Assembly (NCBI RefSeq): GCF_000008625.1 | Contig: NC_001880.1 | Coordinates: 7,457-39,456 of the forward strand | Length of the DNA stretch: 32,000 bases | Origin: Aquifex aeolicus VF5 | GTDB taxonomy: Bacteria > Aquificota > Aquificia > Aquificales > Aquificaceae | Reading direction: 5' to 3' | In this document: in pieces, positions 2,981 to 31,885 of the stretch | How the letters are laid out: each line of letters opens with the position of its first letter | Numbering within the stretch: position 1 is the first letter of the stretch | Translations under genes and position numbers: made by a program | Notes under the pieces: generated by a model | The model's input: the letters and a program-made list of their open reading frames with translations, nothing else | Database searches by the model: none | Told to the model about the DNA's origin: nothing

Positions 2981-3018
2981 AGCAATTAGAAGACTTTGAG
3001 AAATCCGTAAGGGAGAAC
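2965..3018 (+). pseudogene. Remnant of the HEPN-type partner of the MNT gene, cut after about 17 codons
   Basis: TTG 2965 follows AGGAGGG and overlaps the MNT stop. (M)DKFIKQLEDFEKSVRE resembles the N-terminus of nucleotidyltransferase substrate-binding / HEPN proteins. Similarity stops where the IS-terminus sequence begins at about 3017. Confidence 0.3.
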
Positions 3019-3076
3019 GCCAAGTTAAGGATTAGAGGAGTGTAGTGATCTAACGAGAATAAAAGAAGCAAGATGA
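3017..3076 (+). mobile_element. IS terminus copy 1 (GCCAAGTTAAGGATTAGAGGAG...GAGAATAAAAG)
   Basis: About 60 nt alignable by eye with 12246-12320 and 12594-12672, which contain the 3' end of a DDE transposase gene. Confidence 0.65.
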
Positions 3077-6540: not shown

Positions 6541-6574
6541 TCTTTGATTTTCAATAAGTTATTAACCTATTTTA

Positions 6575-6775
6575 AAGCTATCATTAACTCTCGGCAGTGG
6601 AAGTATAGGGCTGTTGTTCAAGCTTGATAGCTTCCTAAAAGTCATTTTGCTTATAGTTGGAGTAGCTTTAACCACAGCTTTTGCAGGGCTTACGATAATC
6701 TTTTACCGAAAAGCTATTGACCTTCTTGAAGAGCTTGAGAAATTAGAAAAGAATAATGAGGCGAAAAATGTATGA
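6575..6775 (+). pseudogene. 5'-truncated paralog of the 89 aa membrane protein 12840..13109 (cassette A)
   Basis: Translation LTLGSGSIGLLFKLDSFLKVILLIVGVALTTAFAGLTIIFYRKAIDLLEELEKLEKNNEAKNV* aligns with the C-terminal two thirds of 12840..13109. No start codon. Confidence 0.55.
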
Positions 6776-6884
6776 TGTAATTGCTTACTTTGGAGCTATT
6801 GCTATTGGGATTATCTTACTGACTATGGCAATTGTGATGCTCAAACTCGCCTTAGAAGAAGGTAAAAAGCCAAAAGCTAAGTAA
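6768..6884 (+). CDS. 38 aa single-TM peptide (MYDVIAYFGAI family)
   Basis: ATG overlaps the upstream stop (ATGTATGA). Paralogs at 15856..15972, 12739..12843 and 7227..7343. Hydrophobic core followed by a Lys-rich tail. Confidence 0.55.
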   Translation: MYDVIAYFGAIAIGIILLTMAIVMLKLALEEGKKPKAK

Positions 6885-6903
6885 AAGAAGGAGAGGAAGT
6901 CTT

Positions 6904-7107
6904 TTGAGACTAAAAAGGGAGACTCTTAAAGAAACAGGAAAGCTTTTCTATGACCTCAGTAAAATTTCCGCAGGTTTGGGGTTGTTGCTTCCTTTCCTTA
7001 AAGGAGAGAACGTAAGCATATTTTCCGCTTTAATTGCACTTTTTTCTTCTCTTGTGTTTTTCGTAATAGGGCTAATTTTAATCAATAAAGGAGCTGAAAA
7101 TGACTGA
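6904..7107 (+). CDS. 67 aa two-TM membrane protein (MRLKRETLKE family)
   Basis: TTG start after GGAGAGGAAG. Paralog 15628..15831 has the same TTG start and the same N-terminus. Confidence 0.6.
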   Translation: MRLKRETLKETGKLFYDLSKISAGLGLLLPFLKGENVSIFSALIALFSSLVFFVIGLILINKGAEND

Positions 7108-7207
7108 CCTAATACTCTACTACCTTATACTTGTCGGAGGGCTGGCTTTAGCAGGATTGGTAGTTTACTTCCTTGCAAACAAGCAGGAAGCTAAAAAGCA
7201 GGGATAA
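7100..7207 (+). CDS. 35 aa single-TM peptide ending NKQEAKKQG
   Basis: ATG overlaps the previous stop by 8 nt, exactly as in the paralog 15528..15635 (ending NKQETEKQG). Confidence 0.5.
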   Translation: MTDLILYYLILVGGLALAGLVVYFLANKQEAKKQG

Positions 7208-7226
7208 GTACCGAAAGATATATGAT

Positions 7227-7343
7227 GTGATAGTCTACTTCGGGGCTATAACTTTAGCGGTCATATTTCTCGTTATGGGCATAGTAATGACAAAATTGAT
7301 GATAGAGGAAAGGAAGAAAAGACAAAAACCCGAAACCAAGTAA
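7227..7343 (+). CDS. Extra copy of the MYDVIAYFGAI-type peptide, with only a GTG start available
   Basis: Frame gives (K)IYDVIVYFGAITLAVIFLVMGIVMTKLMIEERKKRQKPETK*. No in-frame ATG, so it may be degraded. Confidence 0.3.
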   Translation: MIVYFGAITLAVIFLVMGIVMTKLMIEERKKRQKPETK

Positions 7344-12226: not shown

Positions 12227-12592
12227 CTATTTCCAGAATTTCGAGATTGCCAAGTTAAGGGTTAGAGGAGTGGAATGATCTAACGAGAATAAAAGAGGCA
12301 AATCAAGACCAACAGTTTCATATTTGGCATTGTGGGGAAATCGCTTGTGAAAACCCTTCATCCTTTGCTTTATGTGCTTGAACCACCTCTCCACTACATT
12401 CCTACCTCCGAAAGTTTCATGTATCCATCCGCAGTTTAGTTCCCTACATGCTTTCCTATACCATGGCCCCTTATCCGTTACAAACACGTATCCTTTTGAG
12501 TTGTAAAGCACAAGTTTTGCCACATGGGAGCTTTTTTTAGCACTTAACCACACAAAAGTAGGCACTCCCTTCAAGTTACAAGCTATCCACAA
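12227..12592 (-). pseudogene. 5'-truncated DDE transposase (IS6-like by eye)
   Basis: VTDKGPWYRKACRELNCGWIHETFGGRNVVERWFKHIKQRMKGF resembles the C-terminal catalytic region of IS6-type transposases. The N-terminal catalytic part is missing, replaced by another copy of the same IS terminus at 12594. Confidence 0.6.
12246..12320 (+). mobile_element. IS terminus copy 2 (contains the 3' end of the transposase fragment)
   Basis: GCCAAGTTAAGGGTTAGAGGAGTGGAATGATCTAACGAGAATAAAAGAGGCAAATCAAGACCAACAGTTTCAT aligns with copies 1 and 3. Confidence 0.7.
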
Positions 12593-12593
12593 G

Positions 12594-12672
12594 AGACCGC
12601 CAAGTTAAGGATTAGGGGAAAGGAGAGATTTAATGAGAATAAAAGGAAGCGAGCCAAGACCAGACAGTTTCA
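12594..12672 (+). mobile_element. IS terminus copy 3
   Basis: GCCAAGTTAAGGATTAGGGGAAAGGAGAGATTTAATGAGAATAAAAGGAAGCGAGCCAAGACCAGACAGTTTCAT. Direct repeat of copy 2, about 350 bp away. Confidence 0.7.
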
Positions 12673-12738: not shown

Positions 12739-12843
12739 TTACTTTTCCCCAGTAGCTATTTTCACACTTTTATAAACAAAGTAAATAAATGCACTTGCGA
12801 TTATAATTGCCCCTAAAACTGCCAAAATGTCGTAAATGTTCAT
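12739..12843 (-). CDS. 34 aa single-TM peptide (MNIYDILAVLGAI), cassette C
   Basis: ATGA start/stop overlap with 12840..13109. Same family as 6768..6884 and 15856..15972. Below the ORF-track size cut-off. Confidence 0.5.
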   Translation of the reverse strand: MNIYDILAVLGAIIIASAFIYFVYKSVKIATGEK

Positions 12844-13109
12844 TTATCTGCCTCCTTATTATTTAATTTAGACAAAAGTTCAATGTAGTCTTCTATTTTG
12901 ATTAGCAATCGCAAGGTTAGACTAATAAGAATTATTTCCGTAAAAGCACCCACGAATAATAGAAAAACCTTTATTTTATTATCAAGGTTTAAAAGCAGGC
13001 TTATTGTCCCACCACCTATAGCTATAATAGTAATCCAGAATAGTTTAAGAAGCTCAGTTAAAAACTTTATCTTTTCCTTTACGTATTCTTCCTTGTTCAC
13101 ATTTATCAT
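12840..13109 (-). CDS. 89 aa two-TM membrane protein, the full-length member of the family truncated at 6575 and 16190
   Basis: IAIGGGTISLLLNLDNKIKVFLLFVGAF...LLIKIEDYIELLSKLNNKEADK aligns with both truncated copies. Confidence 0.6.
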   Translation of the reverse strand: MINVNKEEYVKEKIKFLTELLKLFWITIIAIGGGTISLLLNLDNKIKVFLLFVGAFTEIILISLTLRLLIKIEDYIELLSKLNNKEADK

Positions 13110-13233
13110 TTTATCATTCTCCTAAAGACTGAGAATTCCCAAACTTCATCACCAAAGAAGTTTGATATTTGAAAATCAATAGATTGGTAAATATACCTTT
13201 ATAAACATATTGAAAATCAAAGGCTTAAAGCAA

Positions 13234-13648
13234 TCATTCTATAGTTAAGGCATTTGTACACTTCTTTACTCCCTTATCAAAGGACACAACTTTGTATTTC
13301 TTAGAATACGCACAAAGAAGGCAATCTACAAAGTCTAAGTTCTTATTAGAGTATATCTTTAGAGCCTCTATAAGGAGCTCATTATCTTCAATTTTCACAT
13401 TCCTAAGTTCCAGTATGTCTATAAGTACCTGTGATATAGTAGGTCTATCAACTTTATATACTTTCTTGAAGAACATAAACAATTTCGGCTATCACTACCT
13501 GTGGGATAAAAACTTTTAGTTCTCCGGAGAGTATCTTATTAAATAACTCCTCAGCCTCTTTATACAGCTTCCTGTGGTCTTTAAGTAGATATCGCAGGAT
13601 TACATTAGCATTAACAATTATCTCTTTTTCCCCTTTCCGCGAGGCCAT
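13234..13648 (-). pseudogene. vapC: PIN-domain VapC toxin split by a frameshift (copy A)
   Basis: ORFs 13454..13648 and 13234..13482 together form one PIN domain (IIVNANVILRYLL / VIAEIVYVL / KVYKVDRPTISQVL / LDFVDCLL / VVSFDK). The frame changes in the AAGAAAG stretch. The first catalytic Asp position reads Asn. Confidence 0.75.
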
Positions 13649-13859
13649 CGCCTATTGCCTCTTTTTCAGTTTTCATTATCTCTTCTATGGACCTGTCACG
13701 GGTAGCGTATTTGTGTAGAATTCCTCCCAATTTCTTAACAGGTTTAATTATTACTTTTCCCTTCTCATAGGTTATCTCAACTATATCAGTTCCTAATAAT
13801 TTCCTGTACTCAGCAGGTATGGTAATTTGTCCTTTCTTAGTAAGCTTAGCTATTTTCAT
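13611..13859 (-). CDS. vapB: AbrB/SpoVT-type antitoxin (copy A)
   Basis: MKIAKLTKKGQITIPAEYRKLLG is a typical swapped-hairpin AbrB/MazE N-terminus. Lies upstream of, and overlaps, the PIN gene. Confidence 0.8.
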   Translation of the reverse strand: MKIAKLTKKGQITIPAEYRKLLGTDIVEITYEKGKVIIKPVKKLGGILHKYATRDRSIEEIMKTEKEAIGDGLAERGKRDNC

Positions 13860-13960
13860 TCTTACCTACCTCAATAGGTACTACTTATTGTATAAAGTAT
13901 TACTTACATTATATAGTGTTACTTTTCACAAAAATGATTACATAGTATAGGTAGTTGTGA

Positions 13961-14256: not shown

Positions 14257-14877
14257 CTAGTTTTCTAGGTACTCTTTTACTTTTCTTTTAAAGAATTCTT
14301 CAACTTCCTCCCAGTAAGGTTCTATATCTTCATAAACTTCTTCCCTTGCATCTTCGAAATATACGAGACTTTTTACAATAATTGAAAAGTCAATATTCCT
14401 GTACTTTTTTTTAACCAATTTTTCAAGCTCTTTTAAATCCCATCCGTGTTTTCTCATCAAAAACCACAGGTCGTAAAAATCCTTCTTTGACCCCCTTTGA
14501 GCTATTGCTACTGCCTTCATACAGGCAATATCCTTGTCCCCCGCTATGAAAATCCCAAGATCATTATTTTTTTCAGGGTTCTCTAACAGCGGGTATCGGT
14601 ATTCAAAAAAAGAGAATTTAATTCCATCAAGCAAGAATATTAGAGTATCTTTACTCTGATAAAGCCACCTTACTCTGCTTAGTTTATCAATTTGCCTTGA
14701 TATAGAGAAACTGTCAAAGGGTTTTTCAGGAAAAGTAAAAAAGTCAAAATCATCTGAAAATCTGTGCCCATATCTTATAAGCAAAGCGGTTCCTCCTGCA
14801 AGATAAAAATCGTTACAGATCCCTAAAGAAACTACTTTTTCTAAAGCCTCTCTCTGTTCTTTCTTTAACTTCCTCAT
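14257..14877 (-). CDS. AbiEii/AbiGii-like nucleotidyltransferase (DUF1814-type toxin)
   Basis: N-terminal FYLAGGTALLIRYGHRFSDDFDFF matches the family signature (GGTAL...R.S.D.DF). Confidence 0.6.
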   Translation of the reverse strand: MRKLKKEQREALEKVVSLGICNDFYLAGGTALLIRYGHRFSDDFDFFTFPEKPFDSFSISRQIDKLSRVRWLYQSKDTLIFLLDGIKFSFFEYRYPLLENPEKNNDLGIFIAGDKDIACMKAVAIAQRGSKKDFYDLWFLMRKHGWDLKELEKLVKKKYRNIDFSIIVKSLVYFEDAREEVYEDIEPYWEEVEEFFKRKVKEYLEN

Positions 14878-15061
14878 CGCTTATATTTAAAGCTAACTTC
14901 CAGAAAGCTCTATTTTTAGCGTCAAACCTATGCAGGTTTTTCAAAAATGCCTCTCTCAGTTTTTTCCTAGGATATTTTTTGAGAACTTCTTTTACGTTTC
15001 CGTAAAGCATTTCTCTTATCAAAAGTTCCCTTTCACTTTTTACCTTGTCCCAGTTAAACAT
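14813..15061 (-). CDS. Small upstream partner ORF of the AbiEii-like gene (candidate antitoxin)
   Basis: 82 aa on the same strand, overlapping the NTase start by 65 nt. No recognisable motif. Confidence 0.4.
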   Translation of the reverse strand: MFNWDKVKSERELLIREMLYGNVKEVLKKYPRKKLREAFLKNLHRFDAKNRAFWKLALNISDEEVKERTERGFRKSSFFRDL

Positions 15062-15223
15062 TTCTATCTAAAACAATTTTAAAATTTTCTAAAGCTTTCT
15101 TAGGTGTGGAGCCTACACTAAAAATCGGAGCTCCCACTACCTCAGCTCCCCAATTACTCTCTTTGTCCTTACGTAGAATTACAAGAAATTTATATTCGTA
15201 ACATATCATATATATTCAATATT

Positions 15224-15448
15224 ATGAAAAGAACGACCATTTTTATAAACGAAGAAACCAAACAAAAAATCAAACTAATAGCCAAGAAAAAGCAAAAAAG
15301 CATGGCAGAAATTATAAGAGAAGCTATAAATGAGTACATTGTAAAACACAAAAAGAATAAGAAGTATTCCTTTATAGGACTTGGTAAAAGCAAAAGATCT
15401 GATATCTCGGAAATTCATGAGGAAAAACTTTGGAAATACTCACAGTAG
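15224..15448 (+). CDS. Ribbon-helix-helix (CopG/VapB-type) antitoxin, with no toxin gene downstream
   Basis: MKRTTIFINEETKQKIKLIAKKKQKSMAEIIREAINEYI is a canonical RHH pattern. Only about 80 bp of non-coding DNA follows. Confidence 0.65.
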   Translation: MKRTTIFINEETKQKIKLIAKKKQKSMAEIIREAINEYIVKHKKNKKYSFIGLGKSKRSDISEIHEEKLWKYSQ

Positions 15449-15527: not shown

Positions 15528-15635
15528 TTATCCTTGCTTTTCAGTTTCCTGCTTATTAACAAGCCAAACTATTACGAGACCAACTGTCAATATCCCAAGA
15601 CCTATAAGAATAAAACCTACGGTGTAGCTATCCAT
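15528..15635 (-). CDS. 35 aa single-TM peptide (cassette B), paralog of 7100..7207
   Basis: MDSYTVGFILIGLGILTVGLVIVWLVNKQETEKQG, with an 8-nt overlap with the upstream gene as in cassette A. Confidence 0.5.
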   Translation of the reverse strand: MDSYTVGFILIGLGILTVGLVIVWLVNKQETEKQG

Positions 15636-15831
15636 CTTCACTTCCCTTATTAACAAAGTAAACTCCCAGCAAAAAGAAGGCGAGCCAAAATCCAAAAACA
15701 AGCAATAAGTAAAATAAGTTCGCCTTATGCTTTTGAAATAATGGAGCAACCAAGCCAACTGAAAGGAAAACTGTGGCAACTGTGAGAAAGCGCTTTCCTA
15801 TTTCCTTAAGTGTTTCCCTTTTCAACCTCAA
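15628..15831 (-). CDS. 67 aa two-TM membrane protein (cassette B), paralog of 6904..7107
   Basis: Same length, same TTG start and the same MRLKRETLKE N-terminus. Confidence 0.6.
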   Translation of the reverse strand: MRLKRETLKEIGKRFLTVATVFLSVGLVAPLFQKHKANLFYLLLVFGFWLAFFLLGVYFVNKGSEDG

Positions 15832-15855: not shown

Positions 15856-15972
15856 TCACTTAGCTTTTGGCTTTTTACCCTCTTCCAAAGTCATCTTAAG
15901 CATCATAACCACTATAAAGAGAAGAATTCCCCATAGGGCGACAGCTCCCAAGAAGGCAATCACATCATACAT
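15856..15972 (-). CDS. 38 aa single-TM peptide (cassette B), paralog of 6768..6884
   Basis: MYDVIAFLGAVALWGILLFIVVMMLKMTLEEGKKPKAK, with AAGGAGG before the ATG. Confidence 0.55.
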   Translation of the reverse strand: MYDVIAFLGAVALWGILLFIVVMMLKMTLEEGKKPKAK

Positions 15973-16000
15973 TTTTCTCCTCCTTGCTCTTTTCTAATCT

Positions 16001-16190
16001 CTAAAGTTCCTCAAGAAGATCAAGTATTTTCCTGTAAGTAACAATCGTAAAAAGGACAAATCCGAGTGTTAGCGATGAGCCCGCAAAAAGCAAGAAAACC
16101 TTTAGCAAGCTATCAAGCTTTAACAACAGCCCTATATTTCCACCGCCGAAAGTTAATGATAGCTTTAAAATTGGTGAAGGAATTCCAAAC
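16001..16190 (-). pseudogene. 5'-truncated paralog of 12840..13109 (cassette B)
   Basis: The reverse complement aligns at DNA level with 6575-6740. It is truncated at the same point (ATTTTAAAGCTATCATTAAC). Confidence 0.55.
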
Positions 16191-16194
16191 TTAC

Positions 16195-16753
16195 GACATA
16201 CAAATTCAAGTTTATATTTCTTTTTGTATCTCCTTCTGAAAGGAATTGTAGTAAATCTATGTGGAAAGTTCTATCCTTTAAAAACTTCATTGGAATGTCT
16301 ATGTCGTGAAGTATAGATCTTATTTTCATTATGTATCCATCAAATTTATATCCGTTGTAGCTAACAATTCTATCAGCTTTTATTATTTCTTCCCAGAATT
16401 TTTGTATGAGGATTTTTCCTTTTCTTCAAGCTCTTCATAAATAAAGTCGGAACTTATCGGTTCAAAGAAAACTTCTACAGTCTTATTCTTACCACATGGG
16501 ATTAGTTTTTTTGTCGTTCTGGTTTGTTTGATCGGAAAGATATACTACTTTTCCTTCTTTTATTATCACTATCTTCTATAAGTACCGTTGAGAAAGATAC
16601 TAAAATAAGCGTGAAGGGATTAAAAGAAAATTCTCGTTCAATATCTTCCTGTGTTTTTTCCCTTTTGCCCCGCTTCTGAATGTATAAATAGTCATCGTAA
16701 GTAATATTCCTTTTATCAGGAACTGTTTCTATATCAAAAACTATAACTTTCAC
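16195..16753 (-). pseudogene. PolB-exonuclease-like 3'-5' exonuclease (COG3298-type), multiply frameshifted and 3'-truncated
   Basis: 16502..16753 starts MKVIVFDIETVP (ExoI DxE motif). Further pieces IVIIKEGKVVYL, ILIQKFWEEIIKADRIVSYNGYKFDGYIMKIRS and FHIDLLQFL lie in other frames. Confidence 0.65.
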
Positions 16754-18878: not shown

Positions 18879-19649
18879 TTATACGACTTCTACCAGTAAA
18901 GGAAAAGGTACGCCGGTTCCGCTCACAATACCTTTACCGGTAGGTAGTTTCGGAAGAATGTTCGCTATATCACTTCCAGCAAATTCTACAAAAGTGGAAA
19001 CTGTATCAATGTCAGATGCATTTATAGTTCTAAACATAACCTGAGTGTTTAATTGAGAAAGGATATATTTGCTAACCTGTGCTGGTCTTTGCGTTATTAC
19101 CATAAGTCCTAAATTGAATTTCCTTCCCTCGGATGCTATCTTTCTGGCAAAAGTGAGAGAAAGGTTTTCTTTTCCTGCGGAGACATCCCCGAATCCCTTT
19201 TCTGGAGCAAAATTGTGCGCCTCTTCCAGAACTAAAAATCTTTTGGAAGGTTGTTTCTTATTCCTTGTAAAAAGCTCTTCCATTATCAGTCCTGCTATGT
19301 TTATTCTCGTTTGTGGATGCGTAATATTCCGGAAGTTAAAAATAATTACTCTCTTTTCACTTTCTAGTCCAGAATTTATTGCATCAAATACAGTTGTTTG
19401 GTTAGATAAACTATTTTCACCGTAAGTTTCTTTAAGGTAAGTGGTTATTTCTTGTATTTCCTTAGAACCCGCATTTAAACTTTCTATCAAATTAACAAGT
19501 GTTTTCTTAGATAAAGAAGTAAGTCTAAGAGAGGGTTTTATGTTCTGTGAAAGTTTTGATCTATTTTCCCTGGCCTGGTGTGAATTACCGCTTACCAGTG
19601 AAGGGTATCCTGCTTCTTTTATAAGTTCTTCCACTTCCTCTGGAAACAC
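18879..19649 (-). CDS. herA: HerA/FtsK-superfamily ATPase, C-terminal half (Walker B, arginine finger region)
   Basis: FLVLEEAHNFAP...EGRKFNLGLMVITQRPAQVSKYILSQLNTQVMFR is a typical HerA/DUF87 C-terminal core. In frame with 19686..20498 across one TAG. Confidence 0.75.
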   Translation of the reverse strand: MFPEEVEELIKEAGYPSLVSGNSHQARENRSKLSQNIKPSLRLTSLSKKTLVNLIESLNAGSKEIQEITTYLKETYGENSLSNQTTVFDAINSGLESEKRVIIFNFRNITHPQTRINIAGLIMEELFTRNKKQPSKRFLVLEEAHNFAPEKGFGDVSAGKENLSLTFARKIASEGRKFNLGLMVITQRPAQVSKYILSQLNTQVMFRTINASDIDTVSTFVEFAGSDIANILPKLPTGKGIVSGTGVPFPLLVEVV

Positions 19650-19685: not shown

Positions 19686-20498
19686 CTAGTTTTCATCTAT
19701 ATAACTCTTTAAATCGTTGAAGTATTCTCCGTGAGGATCAAGTACATAAACTTCAACTTCTTTATCGGATTCAAGTAAACTGGAAATAAACCTTTTTGTA
19801 AAATAGCTTTTTCCTGAACCGGTAGTACCTAGTACGAGCATGTGTTTACTTATCACCTCGTTTGCATCTACAAACACATCTATGTCAGAATTCTCAATCA
19901 CGCCAACTTTTACAGGAACTTCCATATCTCTCCCGGAAAAATTCTTCTTGAGTATTTTCCCCAGTGTTTTTTCTGATATTTTATAAACAGGTTCTCCTAC
20001 ATGGAAGGGATTTCTTAATATATCTAATTTTCCATCCTTTAGTATACCTATTACGTCCGCGGTTGCTATTTTCAGTTTATTTCCATTATTGTTGAGGTAA
20101 GCGTAAATAGCCGCCTTTTTCCATTCGTCATCTTTTCCTTTAGAAAAAATGGTTTTAAAGTCCTCTACGGGAGCAAAAACACTGGATTCCTGTGAAGTGA
20201 AGGGATTCGCAAAAAATCCCATATCGTAAGCAAAAATACTTGTTATCTTTCCGAGCACAATACCTTCCTGTAATTTCACTTCAACGTAAGAATGTAAACC
20301 TATATCATCATTGCCTACCAGAATAAACTCAAAGGATTGAGGTTTTACAGGATTTACAGTAAATCCTAAAAGATCATCTCCAAAACTTTCGGAATACTCT
20401 TCCTTAATTTTTTCAAAGTATTCACGTAGTTTTTTAATATGTTCATCACTGCCGTCCGATTCGTAATAAACTCCCGCTTCTATATTGCCCGTTGACAT
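19686..20498 (-). CDS. herA: HerA/FtsK-superfamily ATPase, N-terminal half (HAS-barrel region plus Walker A)
   Basis: HMLVLGTTGSGKSYFTKRFI...VYVLDPHGEY. Ends at TAG 19686-19688, which is in frame with the downstream half. Confidence 0.75.
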   Translation of the reverse strand: MSTGNIEAGVYYESDGSDEHIKKLREYFEKIKEEYSESFGDDLLGFTVNPVKPQSFEFILVGNDDIGLHSYVEVKLQEGIVLGKITSIFAYDMGFFANPFTSQESSVFAPVEDFKTIFSKGKDDEWKKAAIYAYLNNNGNKLKIATADVIGILKDGKLDILRNPFHVGEPVYKISEKTLGKILKKNFSGRDMEVPVKVGVIENSDIDVFVDANEVISKHMLVLGTTGSGKSYFTKRFISSLLESDKEVEVYVLDPHGEYFNDLKSYIDEN

Positions 20499-22092: not shown

Positions 22093-22149
22093 TTACATTA
22101 AGATAATAAGCTCTAAAGCCTTCCTTTTCAAGGAAAAAATAGAATTAGA

Positions 22150-22493
22150 GTTCTCCTATATATAGGAGAACTACTTTGAGCTCGCTAAAAATCAAGTCTC
22201 AGACACACCACTTGAACTCCGGAAGTTCTCCTAGCTATAGGAGAACCGCTACTTAACTTATTGATTTTCAAGCACTTTCTGTTTAGTTCTCCTAGAAACA
22301 TTTATATCTTTTTCCATATACAAAAGCTTTTTGTTATTGGAGAAGTAATAAGTTATATAGGAGAACTCTCCTTTCAAGTTTTTGATTTTCAATATAGTTC
22401 TCCTATATATAGGAGAACTTTTGTGATTTTTTCTATTCTGTAATGCCCGATTTTTAGTTTGGTCATAAGTGGTTCTCCTAGAACTAGGAGAAC
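22150..22493. repeat. Palindrome (iteron/operator) array, family 2: GTTCTCCTA-N4-TAGGAGAAC
   Basis: 22-bp palindromes at 22150-22171, 22225-22246, 22397-22418 and 22472-22493. A split palindrome has half-sites at 22286-22295 and 22358-22366. Confidence 0.9.
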
Positions 22494-22552: not shown

Positions 22553-23509
22553 ATGCTTGAAGTTGAAAAAAAGATAAAACAAAAGCTGGGGATAGATGAA
22601 ACAGAGGTCCTGAGCTCCCTAACGAGCTACCGGAAAAAAGGCAAAACCTACTATAAAATTGTAACATACGATTCAAAAACGAAACAATCTAGGAGATACC
22701 ATGTGCCCAGAATGTTCGAAGAGGAGATTTTAGCTCTCTGGAAGCAGCGGCAGAAGTACATTGAAGAAGAAAGGGAACTTGAAAGGGAAGTAAAAAGCCT
22801 CTTAAAAAAATACGGGGATGCAGAAAAGATAAAGGAAATTCTGGAAAAAGTAGCAGGAGAAAGTTTTGATAAAGCTGTTTCCTCTTACGCAATTAAGACT
22901 TACACGAATAAGGCAAAGGAACTCTTTAAGAGTTTTAAAGAAGACCTTATAAAGCTTTACAGGGAGGGAGTTTTAAAAAGGCTTTCAGTTTTGCAGGTCC
23001 TTTACCTTCTTGCAAATTTGAAGGAGATTTCCGAAGATACGGAAAGAGGAAGTTACTTTTTCAAGAAAGGACTGAACACGATAATAAAAGTAGCAAAAAA
23101 CGAACGTATCCCAAATCCTTTCGGAACACTTAAAAACGACTTTTTCCTTTCGGGAAAGCAGACCCCTTATGACTTTCTCCTTTCGAATTTTCTTGAAGAG
23201 CTTATAGGAGAAACTCTAGGAGAACTCCTTGAAAAGGAAATTGAGAAATTAGTAGCGGAAGAAAAAGCAAAAGAAATCGAGGGAAAAGTAAAGAAGTTAA
23301 AGGAAATTGTTTCATGGTTTGAAACCCTTCCCTACGAAATAAAACAGATTGCAAAAGAAGTAATTTCTGACAATGTTCTGGATATTGCAGAAAAGTTCTA
23401 CAAGGATATGAAAGAATGCAATTACTCTCTTGATGAAGCAAAAGCATTTTTAACAAGTTCTCCTAGAGATAACCTGGTGAATTACATGCAATACCTTAAG
23501 TCTATATGA
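22553..23509 (+). CDS. 318 aa charged, helical protein, paralog B; candidate replication or iteron-associated protein
   Basis: Same length and shared motifs with 1329..2285. Confidence 0.75.
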   Translation: MLEVEKKIKQKLGIDETEVLSSLTSYRKKGKTYYKIVTYDSKTKQSRRYHVPRMFEEEILALWKQRQKYIEEERELEREVKSLLKKYGDAEKIKEILEKVAGESFDKAVSSYAIKTYTNKAKELFKSFKEDLIKLYREGVLKRLSVLQVLYLLANLKEISEDTERGSYFFKKGLNTIIKVAKNERIPNPFGTLKNDFFLSGKQTPYDFLLSNFLEELIGETLGELLEKEIEKLVAEEKAKEIEGKVKKLKEIVSWFETLPYEIKQIAKEVISDNVLDIAEKFYKDMKECNYSLDEAKAFLTSSPRDNLVNYMQYLKSI

Positions 23510-27438: not shown

Positions 27439-27490
27439 GTCCTATATATAGGACAACTTTTCTACAGAGTTCTCATATCGGTATGAGAAC
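27439..27490. repeat. Two palindromes: GTCCTATATATAGGAC and a perfect family-3 site GTTCTCATATCGGTATGAGAAC
   Basis: 27439-27454 and 27469-27490, read directly from the sequence. Confidence 0.85.
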
Positions 27491-27781
27491 TTTTGCGTTG
27501 TGAACCATGGTTTACAACCTCAGGCAAGTCTTAACTGAGCTAAATTTAACCAAACTAAATTAATATACTTATGGAATATATACACGAAAGTATAAGAGAA
27601 TTCTGTTGTAAAAAGGGAGTGGGGTGTTCTAATTCTATCATTAATTCTGTCTCTTCTTGCAACATATGTGTAAACATTTTTCAAGGTAAGAAAGAAGAAG
27701 GTTTAACTTGAATTCCAAAAGCTCTTCAACTTTTTATTTTGCATCAGACATAGGAAAAAATCCTCCAAAACTCGGACCAAG

Positions 27782-28477: not shown

Positions 28478-28571
28478 GCTAAAAATTGTATGCAGTTTTG
28501 AGGCGAAAACATATGAATAAGGTGTCTGCAGTTTGGAGGCGAGCTATATTGAATACATAATCACCATAAAA

Positions 28572-28686
28572 CATGGTAATTATTGCAAATATGGTATTTA
28601 TGGTCATTATGGTAAATACAAATTATGGTAAATATGGTAATTATGGTAAGTATGGTTATTATGGCAATAAAGGTAAACATGGTAAA
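28572..28686. repeat. Tandem 9-bp repeats TATGGTAAN, 5 + 7 units in two blocks
   Basis: Blocks 28572-28616 and 28624-28686, separated by a 7-nt phase break. They end 10 nt before the ATG of the ParM-like remnant. Confidence 0.85.
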
Positions 28687-28695
28687 AGGTATAAG

Positions 28696-29060: not shown

Positions 29061-29274
29061 GAAGTAAGGTTTTTTGAATTTACGAAAGTAAGGCTAAAGA
29101 GGGAAGTCAAGTTGGTGAATTTCAAGGAAGTAAGGTTGAAGACAGGGAAGTAAGGTTCGTGAATTTGCAGGAAGTAAGGTTAAAGAGGGAAGTAGGGAAG
29201 TTTCGTATTGTGTGAATTCGCAGGAAGTAAGGGACAAGCGGGAAGTCTTGTGAATTTTTACCTTTTTGTGAATT
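29061..29274 (+). repeat. Iteron array of interleaved GGAAGTAAGG and GTGAATT boxes
   Basis: GAAGTAAGG-type boxes at about 29061, 29084, 29126, 29145, 29170 and 29223, with variants at 29101, 29188 and 29240. GTGAATT-type boxes at 29115, 29159, 29212, 29250 and 29268 (TGAATT only at 29075). All are in one orientation. Confidence 0.8.
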
Positions 29275-30613: not shown

Positions 30614-30695
30614 TTCCTGGAAAACAAAAAGGAATGACTTTCTAAGAGTGACGAATCGGTTTACATTAGGAAATACATATTAAGGATAAGTAAGG

Positions 30696-30944
30696 ATGAA
30701 GATAGCTAAGCTTACTAAGAAGGGACAATTTACCATACCTACGGGATATAGGAAATTATTAGGAACTTATATAGTTGAAATAACCTATGAGAAAGGAAAA
30801 GTAATAATTAAACCTGCTAAGAAATTGGGAGGAATTCTACATAAATACGCTATCCGGGACAGGTCCATAGAAGAGATAATGAAAACTGAAAAAGAGGCAA
30901 TAGGCGATGGCCTCGCGGAAAGGGGAAAAAGAGATAATTGTTAA
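30696..30944 (+). CDS. vapB: AbrB/SpoVT-type antitoxin (copy B)
   Basis: 82 aa with 6 substitutions relative to copy A, all in the first 53 residues. Confidence 0.8.
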   Translation: MKIAKLTKKGQFTIPTGYRKLLGTYIVEITYEKGKVIIKPAKKLGGILHKYAIRDRSIEEIMKTEKEAIGDGLAERGKRDNC

Positions 30945-31321
30945 TGCTAATGTAATCCTGCGATATCTACTTAAAGACCACAGGAAGCTGTATAAAGAGG
31001 CTGAGGAGTTATTTAATAAGATACTCTCCGGAGAACTAAAAGTTTTTATCCCACAGGTAGTGATAGCCGAAATTGTTTATGTTCTTCAAGAAAGTATATA
31101 AAGTTGATAGACCTACTATATCACAGGTACTTATAGACATACTGGAACTTAGGAATGTGAAAATTGAAGATAATGAGCTCCTTATAGAGGCTCTAAAGAT
31201 ATACTCTAATAAGAACTTAGACTTTGTAGATTGCCTTCTTTGTGCGTATTCTAAGAAATACAAAGTTGTGTCCTTTGATAAGGGAGTAAAGAAGTGTACA
31301 AATGCCTTAACTATAGAATGA
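30907..31321 (+). pseudogene. vapC: PIN-domain VapC toxin split by the same frameshift (copy B)
   Basis: ORFs 30907..31101 and 31073..31321 are identical in protein sequence to the copy A ORFs. Confidence 0.75.
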
Positions 31322-31555
31322 TTGCTTTAAGCCTTTGATTTTCAATATGTTTATAAAGGTATATTTACCAATCTATTGATTTTCAAATATCAAACTTCTT
31401 TGTCCAAGAAGTTTGGAAAAATAAATCAAAAGGAGGAGGTAGAAAAATGCTAAGAAAACTCTTCTTTCTCCTCATTTTCCTGAGTGCAATCACACTTGCA
31501 GTTCCAGAAGAAGTTTGAGGTTTGATAATCAATATGTTTATAAACTTCTGGCAGG

Positions 31556-31716
31556 CTTTCTATCCCATATATGGGGACTAAAACGAATTCCCCAAGGGGT
31601 GGAAGACGCCGTGCCGAAGTTCTTTCTATCCCACATATGGTAACTAAAACTAAATACAAATCAACAAATAATGCAGATAAGGTATGACTTTCTATCCCAT
31701 ATATGGGAACTAAAAC
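31556..31716 (-). CRISPR. Mini-CRISPR array: three 29-nt repeats and two 37-nt spacers
   Basis: Repeats at 31556-31584, 31622-31650 and 31688-31716 (CTTTCTATCCCATATATGGGGACTAAAAC, with 3 and 1 mismatches). Internal palindrome TCCCATATATGGGA. The reverse complement reads GTTTTAGTCCCCATATATGGGATAGAAAG, so minus-strand transcription is likely. Confidence 0.75.
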
Positions 31717-31885
31717 GATTACTCGATAAAACTTACTCACCTCCTAACAAAGATGAACATACAGATGGGGAAAGCAGGGCTTGCGGTAGTGTTTGACAAA
31801 TTACAAGAAGGCGAGTTTTTTGAAAACGAAGGGGAGGGAGAAAAAGAGTACGTCTGGGTTGAGAAGTGGAAAGGGGCTATTGTGC

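Follow-up and report, generated by a model that had tools for sequence, protein, structure and literature searches.

Predicted membrane microprotein pairs in Aquifex aeolicus: two recombining two-gene units, one of them encoding a DUF6722 protein and its partner peptide

This analysis concerns a group of very small, overlapping genes found in a 32,000-nucleotide (nt) stretch of Aquifex aeolicus VF5 DNA (NC_001880.1, positions 7,457 to 39,456; hereafter ‘the window’, to which coordinates refer unless another locus is named), which is part of the plasmid ece1. A preliminary description of this DNA reported a cassette of tiny membrane-peptide genes in three copies (A, B and C), each drawn from the same families; the ORF (open reading frame) listing, direct reading and searches with profile hidden Markov models (HMMs) all bear this out. 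We call the four genes g1 (89 amino acids, aa), g2 (34-38 aa), g3 (67 aa) and g4 (35 aa). When run over six-frame translations of the whole window, the profile HMMs find g1 three times, g2 four times and g3 and g4 twice each, with no further copy of any of the four among all six-frame fragments; two of the three g1 copies (those of A and B) are truncated, and one of the four g2 copies lacks an ATG. The matched fragments span 6566-6772(+), 16004-16270(-) and 12843-13121(-) for g1; 6747-6881, 7164-7340, 15859-15993(-) and 12742-12843(-) for g2; 6904-7107 and 15628-15831(-) for g3; and 7100-7207 and 15528-15635(-) for g4. The window itself is AT-rich and visibly decayed: in it are found several addiction modules and a HerA gene broken in two, along with insertion sequence (IS)-end repeats and an inverted duplication of 733 nt.

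Reading cassette A along the plus strand, we see a 5′-truncated hairpin gene, g1′ (6569-6775), which corresponds to approximately codons 21-89 of g1; its open frame starts at 6566 and contains a TTG at 6614, and it appears in RefSeq as a 53-aa hypothetical protein. It overlaps by 8 nt (ATGTATGA) with g2 (6768-6884), encoding a 38-aa peptide with a single transmembrane (TM) helix (MYDVIAYF...KKPKAK). There follows g3 (6904-7107), a 67-aa two-TM hairpin of the DUF6722 family read from a TTG start that is preceded by AAGGAGAGG, and then, through a second 8-nt overlap (ATGACTGA), g4 (7100-7207), its 35-aa single-TM partner peptide (MTDLILYYLILVGG...NKQEAKKQG). An additional g2-family copy, g2′ (7218-7343, plus strand), closes the cassette; it has ATA at the ATG position and is translatable only from a TTG at 7173, as an N-extended 56-aa ORF. 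On its left, cassette A abuts the remnant of a subtilase pseudogene (Peptidase_S8, PF00082; 5495-6568, minus strand), of which only profile positions 134-276 are matched—the 5′ part, with the Asp and His residues, being gone—and in which three-frame translation reveals three in-frame stops.

Cassettes B and C lie on the minus strand. B comprises a g1′ (15968-16180) cut at the same point as that of A and carrying an additional in-frame TAG; g2 (15856-15972), a 38-aa peptide; g3 (15628-15831), a divergent or ‘B-type’ 67-aa DUF6722-like hairpin with a TTG start, whose nearest relative is in locus L072; and g4 (15528-15635), a 35-aa peptide (MDSYTVGF...NKQETEKQG) that again shares 8 nt with the preceding gene (ATGGATAG). 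It abuts a 3′-5′ exonuclease-like (DEDD-type) pseudogene remnant (16181-16753, minus strand), which has kept its FDIET motif, contains at least two frameshifts and has lost its 3′ part. Cassette C holds the sole full-length g1 (12840-13109; 89 aa, two TM helices, charged N- and C-terminal tails), joined by a 4-nt overlap (ATGA) to g2 (12739-12843), a 34-aa single-TM peptide. Just upstream of this g1 is a promoter-like site (13108-13135, minus strand; TTCTCA-16-TAAAAT with TG), a consensus match only, within the ~60-120 nt of upstream sequence that are conserved with locus L011 and that have been lost from both A and B. The start/stop overlaps are those originally claimed, and the genes do look translationally coupled; the truncated subtilase and exonuclease at the two junctions are likewise as reported, both being, in addition, pseudogenes beyond their truncation.

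Database records for these genes are sparse. The g3 product of A matches, with 100% identity, an Aquifex aeolicus entry of RefSeq named ‘DUF6722 family protein’ and scores 34.2 bits against Pfam DUF6722 (PF20482), where the gathering cut-off is 27, placing it within the family; its homologues P0001-P0007 also carry PF20482. The g3 product of B gives no PF20482 match at E <= 0.1, but aligns with the family over its full length, with 39% identity to A, and a close relative, P0012, is recovered by the family profile at E = 1e-14. No Pfam family was found for the g2 or g4 peptides, the overlapping single-TM partner of DUF6722 included, and four of the ece1 genes (g2 and g4 in A, g2 in C, g3 in B) gave no NCBI record; of these, g4 of A is recorded only in Logan assemblies, whilst g2 of B has a MetaClust/UniParc identifier only, and g4 of B is present in RefSeq solely as an N-extended 42-aa protein. 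Microproteins of less than 40 aa are routinely overlooked by annotation.

Comparison with other loci shows that the ‘cassette’ is composed of two independent two-gene units, g1-g2 and g3-g4. The latter is found without g1 or g2 in loci L001, L003, L006, L012 and L015; homologues of g3 occur on Aquificales metagenome contigs and on a Hydrogenivirga contig, and every one of them overlaps, again by 8 nt, a g4 homologue downstream. Conversely, L011 carries g1-g2 without g3-g4: its g1 homologue (75% identity, the only one found outside ece1) shares 4 nt with a g2 homologue, and directly downstream of the latter is a tyrosine-recombinase-like ORF, read from the sequence and not from a Pfam scan. A search for the cassette elsewhere, proposed in the preliminary description, has thus recovered each pair alone and the four-gene cassette only in ece1; neither the A/B-type g1′ nor the four-gene arrangement has a counterpart among 5.8 billion proteins and, as far as the data go, this arrangement is peculiar to ece1. 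The two units are analogous in design, a two-TM hairpin followed by a one-TM peptide. We considered g1 as a distant DUF6722 paralogue and rejected it (hhalign probability 7.9%), the likeness being one of architecture alone. A second, sequence-unrelated pair, encoding a 59-aa two-TM and a 35-aa one-TM protein separated by a 1-nt gap, is present in L006 (5373-5661), upstream of g3-g4 and with an HTH_17 gene in between; the hairpin-plus-peptide design may thus extend beyond DUF6722.

Searching 1.84 billion representative proteins with a profile returned 89 members of the DUF6722 family, nearly all of 58-70 aa. We fetched 7 genome, 2 viral and 80 metagenome loci; retrieval used the narrower alignment A3, the broad alignment A2 being too diverse. 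The members have in common a KKETLKE-GK motif at the N-terminus, an INKG motif at the C-terminus and, in between, two hydrophobic helices connected by a loop that contains Pro. In Aquificota and Campylobacterota, 79 distinct loci could be assessed; in 77 of these the gene for the DUF6722 protein is overlapped or abutted downstream by an ORF of 28-38 aa whose product has a single hydrophobic helix and a tail rich in Lys/His. The overlap is of 8 nt in 53 of the 77, and in the two unpaired loci g3 is frameshifted or truncated. Of 355 other ORFs of these loci put to the same test, 8 were positive. The conserved TTG start that had been proposed for g3 holds for A and B, while homologues have GTG or ATG.

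The ratio of non-synonymous to synonymous differences per site (pN/pS) is 0.19-0.29 among orthologues of g3 and 0.16-0.42 among those of g4, with synonymous divergence near saturation, and is 0.21 and 0.24 for g1 and g2, respectively, when cassette C is compared with L011. Purifying selection of this kind indicates that g1-g4 are real genes; the preliminary description had named a lack of conservation and of synonymous bias as grounds for giving the ORFs up, and with ratios of 0.16-0.42 neither is found. Taken together, these comparisons show g3-g4 as a conserved pair under purifying selection in Aquificota and Campylobacterota. Distances among g3 and among g4 proteins also co-vary over the 77 pairs (Mantel r = 0.50, a value reached by 0 of 999 permutations), and the TM cores of both partners differ between the A-type and the B-type.

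Where related modules sit in differing contexts, DNA identity is 70-95% from the start of g3 to the stop of g4 and falls to background outside; L003 and L015, for instance, are ~90% identical inside the unit and 20-40% outside it, and the boundaries are just as sharp when A of ece1 is aligned with five loci, or B with L072. These alignments show that different loci have g3-g4 in common as a sharply bounded unit of ~300 bp. Two contigs contain little else: L090 (2,091 bp) encodes a 305-aa rep-like protein, g3 and g4 only, whilst L094 (3,771 bp) encodes Rep3, Mob, an 81-aa ORF, g3 and g4, and 127-nt terminal overlaps suggest that both are circular. The pair lies mostly beside genes of plasmids or integrative elements; its recurrent neighbours are Rep3 initiators, phage-type integrases, helix-turn-helix (HTH) regulators, anti-repressor-like proteins and Mob relaxases, and addiction-type genes (AbiE, VapBC-like, RelBE, HicB-like) lie nearby. 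The boundaries, together with starts that overlap the stop of an upstream ORF, imply that g3-g4 is usually promoterless and rides on the gene upstream. We found nothing that points to a dedicated mobility mechanism: the unit contains no recombinase and has no common hairpin or attC-like site at its 3′ end, and 72 loci yielded no common motif or hairpin downstream of g4. An integron-type gene cassette, which would carry an imperfect inverted repeat (attC) there, accordingly finds no support. DNA and protein searches of PLSDB gave no match to ece1 or its relatives. The suggestion that the cassette is a mobile or recombining unit survives as to recombination, with sharp limits at the g3 start and g4 stop; the unit is the two-gene pair and not the four-gene cassette.

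That A and B begin at the identical point inside g1, as first noted, is confirmed: homology starts exactly at ATTTTAAAGCTATCATTAAC (6569 in A, 16180 in B), and the flanks left of the junction are unrelated. Within the cassettes, identity alternates between blocks of 80-93% (the 5′ remnant of g1′; the g1′/g2 overlap; the g2 tail with the Shine-Dalgarno sequence and the g3 head; the g4 tail) and blocks of 30-55%, the latter being the TM cores of all four genes; the conserved ends and diverged TM core originally ascribed to the 67-aa protein are present there and are not limited to it. Pooled hydrophilic termini give pS 0.415 and pN 0.111 (pN/pS about 0.27) and pooled TM cores pS 0.78 and pN 0.46, whilst the g3 head, with pS 0.71 and pN 0.03, has been kept at the protein level only. 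In the leftmost 81 nt synonymous sites are conserved too (pS 0.15, pN 0.10) and, as this neutral-looking segment is far less diverged than the remainder, A and B are not simple duplicates; on these sequence figures, recombination or gene conversion must have homogenised their left end or swapped their cores. The recurrence of B-type g3-g4 as a pair in L072, behind a ribbon-helix-helix (RHH) gene, is consistent with such recombination.

A and B are both missing the promoter region of g1 along with its first ~20 codons. Their shared truncation is best read as that of one truncated array copied or converted within a mosaic plasmid, and would not, on this reading, mark the end of a dedicated mobile element; the joining of A and B to two different pseudogenes shows that they were placed by recombination in a decaying, mosaic plasmid. 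No variant of ece1 with an intact subtilase or exonuclease was found, Logan contigs of other runs keeping the same arrangement. For ece1, recombination scars are documented hereby at the junctions with the two pseudogenes and at the truncation point that A and B share. A possible continuation of g1 homology to the left of the A junction (AAGTTATTAAC compared with C and L011) was not significant against shuffles, and B gives a similarly scoring, spurious match in the same test. The best-conserved stretch between A and B (~91%; 6569-6660 and 16089-16180(-)) is the non-functional-looking 5′ remnant of g1′, and contains a 9-bp inverted repeat (AAGCTATCA / TGATAGCTT). A structured RNA was considered for this block and set aside: the same two-tier stem is predicted for both copies, with z-scores of -1.3 and -0.95 that are not significant against shuffled sequence. 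Rfam gives no match in the window, and neither in nor upstream of A or B does a promoter-like site score above chance.

Hydropathy and charge distribution predict that the g1 and g3 products are hairpins with both termini in the cytoplasm (N-in/C-in) and that those of g2 and g4 are single-pass N-out/C-in peptides; the topology check put forward in the preliminary description thus supports its count of two TM helices for the 89-aa and 67-aa proteins, and gives one for the peptides. The hairpins have a lysine-rich N-terminus, the peptides a short acidic N-terminal end, one TM helix and a basic C-terminal tail. An AlphaFold2 (AF2) model of g3 of A is a helical hairpin (helices 2-33 and 39-64; predicted local distance difference test, pLDDT, of 83), and P0048, an 89-aa protein, appears to be a natural g3-g4 fusion with three helices (AF2 in single-sequence mode, pLDDT 76) or, alternatively, an assembly frameshift. 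The start/stop overlap would make translation of the peptide dependent on termination of the hairpin gene, such that both products are made together and could assemble into a roughly stoichiometric three-helix unit in the inner membrane; the recombining unit probably encodes a small membrane complex, and of the roles first suggested for the cassette it is this one that fits best. The pairs may also have toxin-like or exclusion roles.

Our best explanation as a whole, to which we give somewhat less than an even chance, is that the products of these paired microprotein operons form a three-helix membrane unit that serves the mobile element. The narrower proposal within it, that g3-g4 (and g1-g2) encode a membrane effector and its cognate inhibitor for plasmid addiction or exclusion, acting through helix-helix contact in the membrane, is more tentative still, and we think it a possibility with the balance against it. 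This proposal is prompted by the mini-plasmids on which the pair is sole cargo, by promiscuous transfer, by the coexistence of divergent alleles, by neighbourhoods rich in addiction and defence genes and by the pattern of decay. The last is asymmetric: g1′ is truncated in A and B where g2 is intact, and in L009 g3 is cut to 39 aa where g4 is intact. As the truncated partner in decayed copies is the hairpin, with peptides kept or accumulating, we slightly favour a scheme in which the hairpin does harm and the peptide protects against it. Extra single-TM peptide genes occur directly after the pair at three independent loci (L003, 6343-6462; L091, 5238-5372; and 7218-7343 of the window); these may be orphan partner peptides.

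That said, a good deal weighs against an effector/inhibitor role. The decay asymmetry rests on about four events and, the hairpin gene being approximately twice as long a target, lies near chance (roughly 0.2-0.27 by gene-length arithmetic); linkage alone, moreover, predicts the co-divergence of g3 and g4. Neither partner has a DNA-binding domain and the promoter region is usually absent from the unit, unlike autoregulated toxin-antitoxin pairs, whilst a natural fusion of the two partners is a poor fit to addiction by differential stability. The strongest conservation in g3 is not in the TM helices at all, but in the cytoplasmic N-terminal motif KKETLKEIGK, which hints at a further partner in the cytoplasm. 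A mobile-element hallmark gene lies within 3 kb in just 22 of 83 distinct loci, many contigs being short, and in 18 of the 60 loci with a same-strand upstream ORF the g3 start overlaps that ORF’s stop (ATGA type); such upstream genes include rep, but also transketolase-like, HemE-like, saccharopine dehydrogenase-like and U32-like peptidase ORFs, the housekeeping calls having been read from sequence. External comparison gives no help either: PHROGs, NCBIfam and PADLOC return sub-threshold TM noise only for g1-g4 (0 families in PADLOC), the PDB, searched by profile and by predicted fold, returns generic helical hairpins only (E >= 0.6), and in the literature on DUF6722, ece1 and membrane antitoxins we found nothing specific.

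Known systems resemble the pairs in part. Small membrane toxins of type I toxin-antitoxin systems typically have a single TM helix between short termini and a length of <60 aa (PMC12648545). In build, the g2 and g4 peptides, at 34-38 aa and with one TM helix, are like the type I toxins Hok, TisB and Fst. Carriage on plasmids is a further common trait, and hok, too, has an upstream ORF, mok, with which it overlaps and is translationally coupled; here, however, the upstream ORF is a conserved two-TM protein, and there is neither sequence similarity to these toxins nor an Rfam match in the window. Type II systems offer the same layout, two small overlapping genes that are often transferred and reside on plasmids; the comparison takes in three-gene omega-epsilon-zeta-like operons as well. 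The pairs sit beside other addiction modules and frequently have an RHH or HTH gene directly upstream, for instance in L094, L018, L006 and L072. The pairs differ from type II systems in that g3 and g4 are both predicted integral membrane proteins with no recognisable toxin fold; without a DNA-binding domain, and with unit boundaries that exclude the upstream region, neither can be cast as an autoregulating antitoxin, and g3-g4 expression would, to judge from its position, often depend on the upstream gene.

A third likeness is to class II holins, holin/antiholin pairs and T4 Imm, which are small two-TM N-in/C-in hairpins regulated by intramembrane helix-helix contacts. The predicted topology and size of our hairpins resemble those of class II holins (in part a matter of general knowledge), and the g1 C-terminal tail is charged; yet a holin or two-component holin/antiholin lysis cassette, one of the roles first suggested, is to our minds very improbable. 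There is no endolysin-like family among the recurrent neighbours, the family is nearly absent from phage genomes (0 matches in 50,697, and only 2 loci in IMG/VR), the pair is found on rep-only mini-plasmids and inside housekeeping operons, the g3 C-terminal tail has only 6-8 residues, and no sequence or fold match links the pairs to holins or T4 Imm.

The likeness to Imm, in that known exclusion proteins such as this are small inner-membrane proteins, bears also on the idea that the three-helix unit is a non-toxic barrier against competing DNA, whether injected by phage or brought in by other plasmids, with alleles acting as specificities. Carriage on plasmids and integrative elements beside HTH, anti-repressor-like and integrase genes would suit this, as would defence-type neighbours (restriction-modification-like and SIR2-like ORFs, read from sequence, along with AbiE and HerA in ece1) and the presence of several divergent alleles on one replicon. 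We nonetheless consider a barrier unlikely, given that neither PADLOC, in which g1-g4 match none of the anti-phage defence families, nor PHROG recognises the proteins, that a 2.1-kb rep-only plasmid profits little from conjugation exclusion, that chromosomal copies are appended to housekeeping-like genes and that we see no link to a particular phage or transfer system. Alternatively, the pair could form an accessory membrane complex of benefit to the host—for example in membrane stabilisation, ion or metal handling, or as subunit of a larger machine—that spreads horizontally among hot-vent bacteria as a niche adaptation. Its distribution tracks habitat and not phylogeny, its carriers in vent metagenomes being Aquificota and Campylobacterota; in many copies the pair is joined translationally to the end of a housekeeping-like gene, a fused form (P0048) exists, the cytoplasmic N-terminal motif is strongly conserved and the g4 tails of Campylobacterota are His/Lys-rich. 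Set against this are the absence of a large membrane partner gene conserved nearby, the small and patchy family, at 89 representatives in 1.84 billion proteins, its fast-evolving TM cores and its frequent place as the sole cargo of tiny plasmids, on account of which we judge such a complex, too, to be improbable.

Whatever the function of the family, A and B may themselves be silent, promoterless relics of recombination, with ORFs that are intact from their history before insertion; we rate this a real, if doubtful, possibility. Both cassettes have lost the conserved upstream region and the start of g1, both abut pseudogenes, g1′ of B has its in-frame stop and g2′ its missing ATG, and ece1 is rich in split genes, IS remnants and repeats; the want of an above-chance promoter-like site upstream of A or B counts for this explanation and also against the effector/inhibitor proposal. 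What speaks against silent relics is that g2, g3 and g4 are intact in A and B despite saturated synonymous divergence, that their pooled hydrophilic termini still give a pN/pS of about 0.27, and that Shine-Dalgarno sequences and overlaps have been preserved; read-through from neighbouring genes could, in addition, still supply transcription.

The surroundings of the cassettes merit brief description. Directly downstream of g2 of C is a 121-aa transposase-like fragment (12227-12592(-)), at the position of which the homologous locus L011 has its tyrosine-recombinase-like gene; an IS-end-like repeat occurs in three copies (3013-3071, 12243-12301 and 12593-12651). The 733-nt inverted duplication (13136-13868 and 30687-31419; 97% identity), one arm of which starts ~27 nt from cassette C, carries, as read from the sequence, a pair of 82-aa ORFs for an AbrB-type antitoxin-like and a PIN-like toxin protein. 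Between C and B is an AbiEii-like gene with an overlapping 82-aa partner (14257-15061(-)). Some 320 nt downstream of g4 of B, a 51-aa ORF (15054-15209(-)) closely resembles the N-terminal part of an 82-aa HicB-like protein that comes after g3-g4 in L006 (6349-6597) and L016, a likeness in sequence that suggests an older g3-g4-hicB block; in ece1 an RHH ORF (15224-15448(+)) lies between this ORF and g4 of B. Further afield, the HerA-like ATPase is split into 18879-19649(-) and 19686-20498(-) and is probably a pseudogene, whilst paralogous 318-aa ORFs (1329-2285 and 22553-23509) share several DNA repeat blocks (D8, D11, D15), which points again to internal duplication in ece1. Three ~31-nt direct repeats (CTTTCTATCCCATATATGGGGACTAAAACGA) with a 66-nt period at 31556-31718, close to the end of the window, resemble a miniature array of clustered regularly interspaced short palindromic repeats (CRISPR), although at the gathering threshold no CRISPR-DR family of Rfam matches them. 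Other repeats lie at 22146-22426, 27465-27498, 28569-28695 and 29061-29246: they comprise palindromic 34-nt repeats (…GTTCTCCTATATATAGGAGAAC…), situated upstream of the 318-aa ORF at 22553, as well as 9-nt tandem and 42-53-nt direct repeats, and may serve the plasmid as operators or iterons.

Through this analysis, DUF6722 acquires a near-obligate and largely unannotated partner and a place in a two-gene architecture; together with the topology predicted for it and its setting in ecology and on mobile elements, this makes the family directly testable for toxicity and rescue, plasmid stability and exclusion. We also entertain, as an improbable extension, a new all-membrane effector/immunity class of two microproteins: ~300 bp, promoterless, docking onto a resident stop codon (ATGA), with allelic specificity in the TM cores and orphan peptides as spare immunities. 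Docking of this kind, if true, would mean that the unit borrows the transcription and translation of the resident gene across vent-bacterial plasmids and chromosomes, and such a class would be among the smallest self-contained devices for plasmid maintenance or exclusion known. If the effector/inhibitor proposal is right, an all-membrane, protein-protein type from thermophiles would join the repertoire of plasmid addiction and exclusion; and if the unit is only an accessory membrane complex, it would still be a conserved, heteromeric pair of microproteins.

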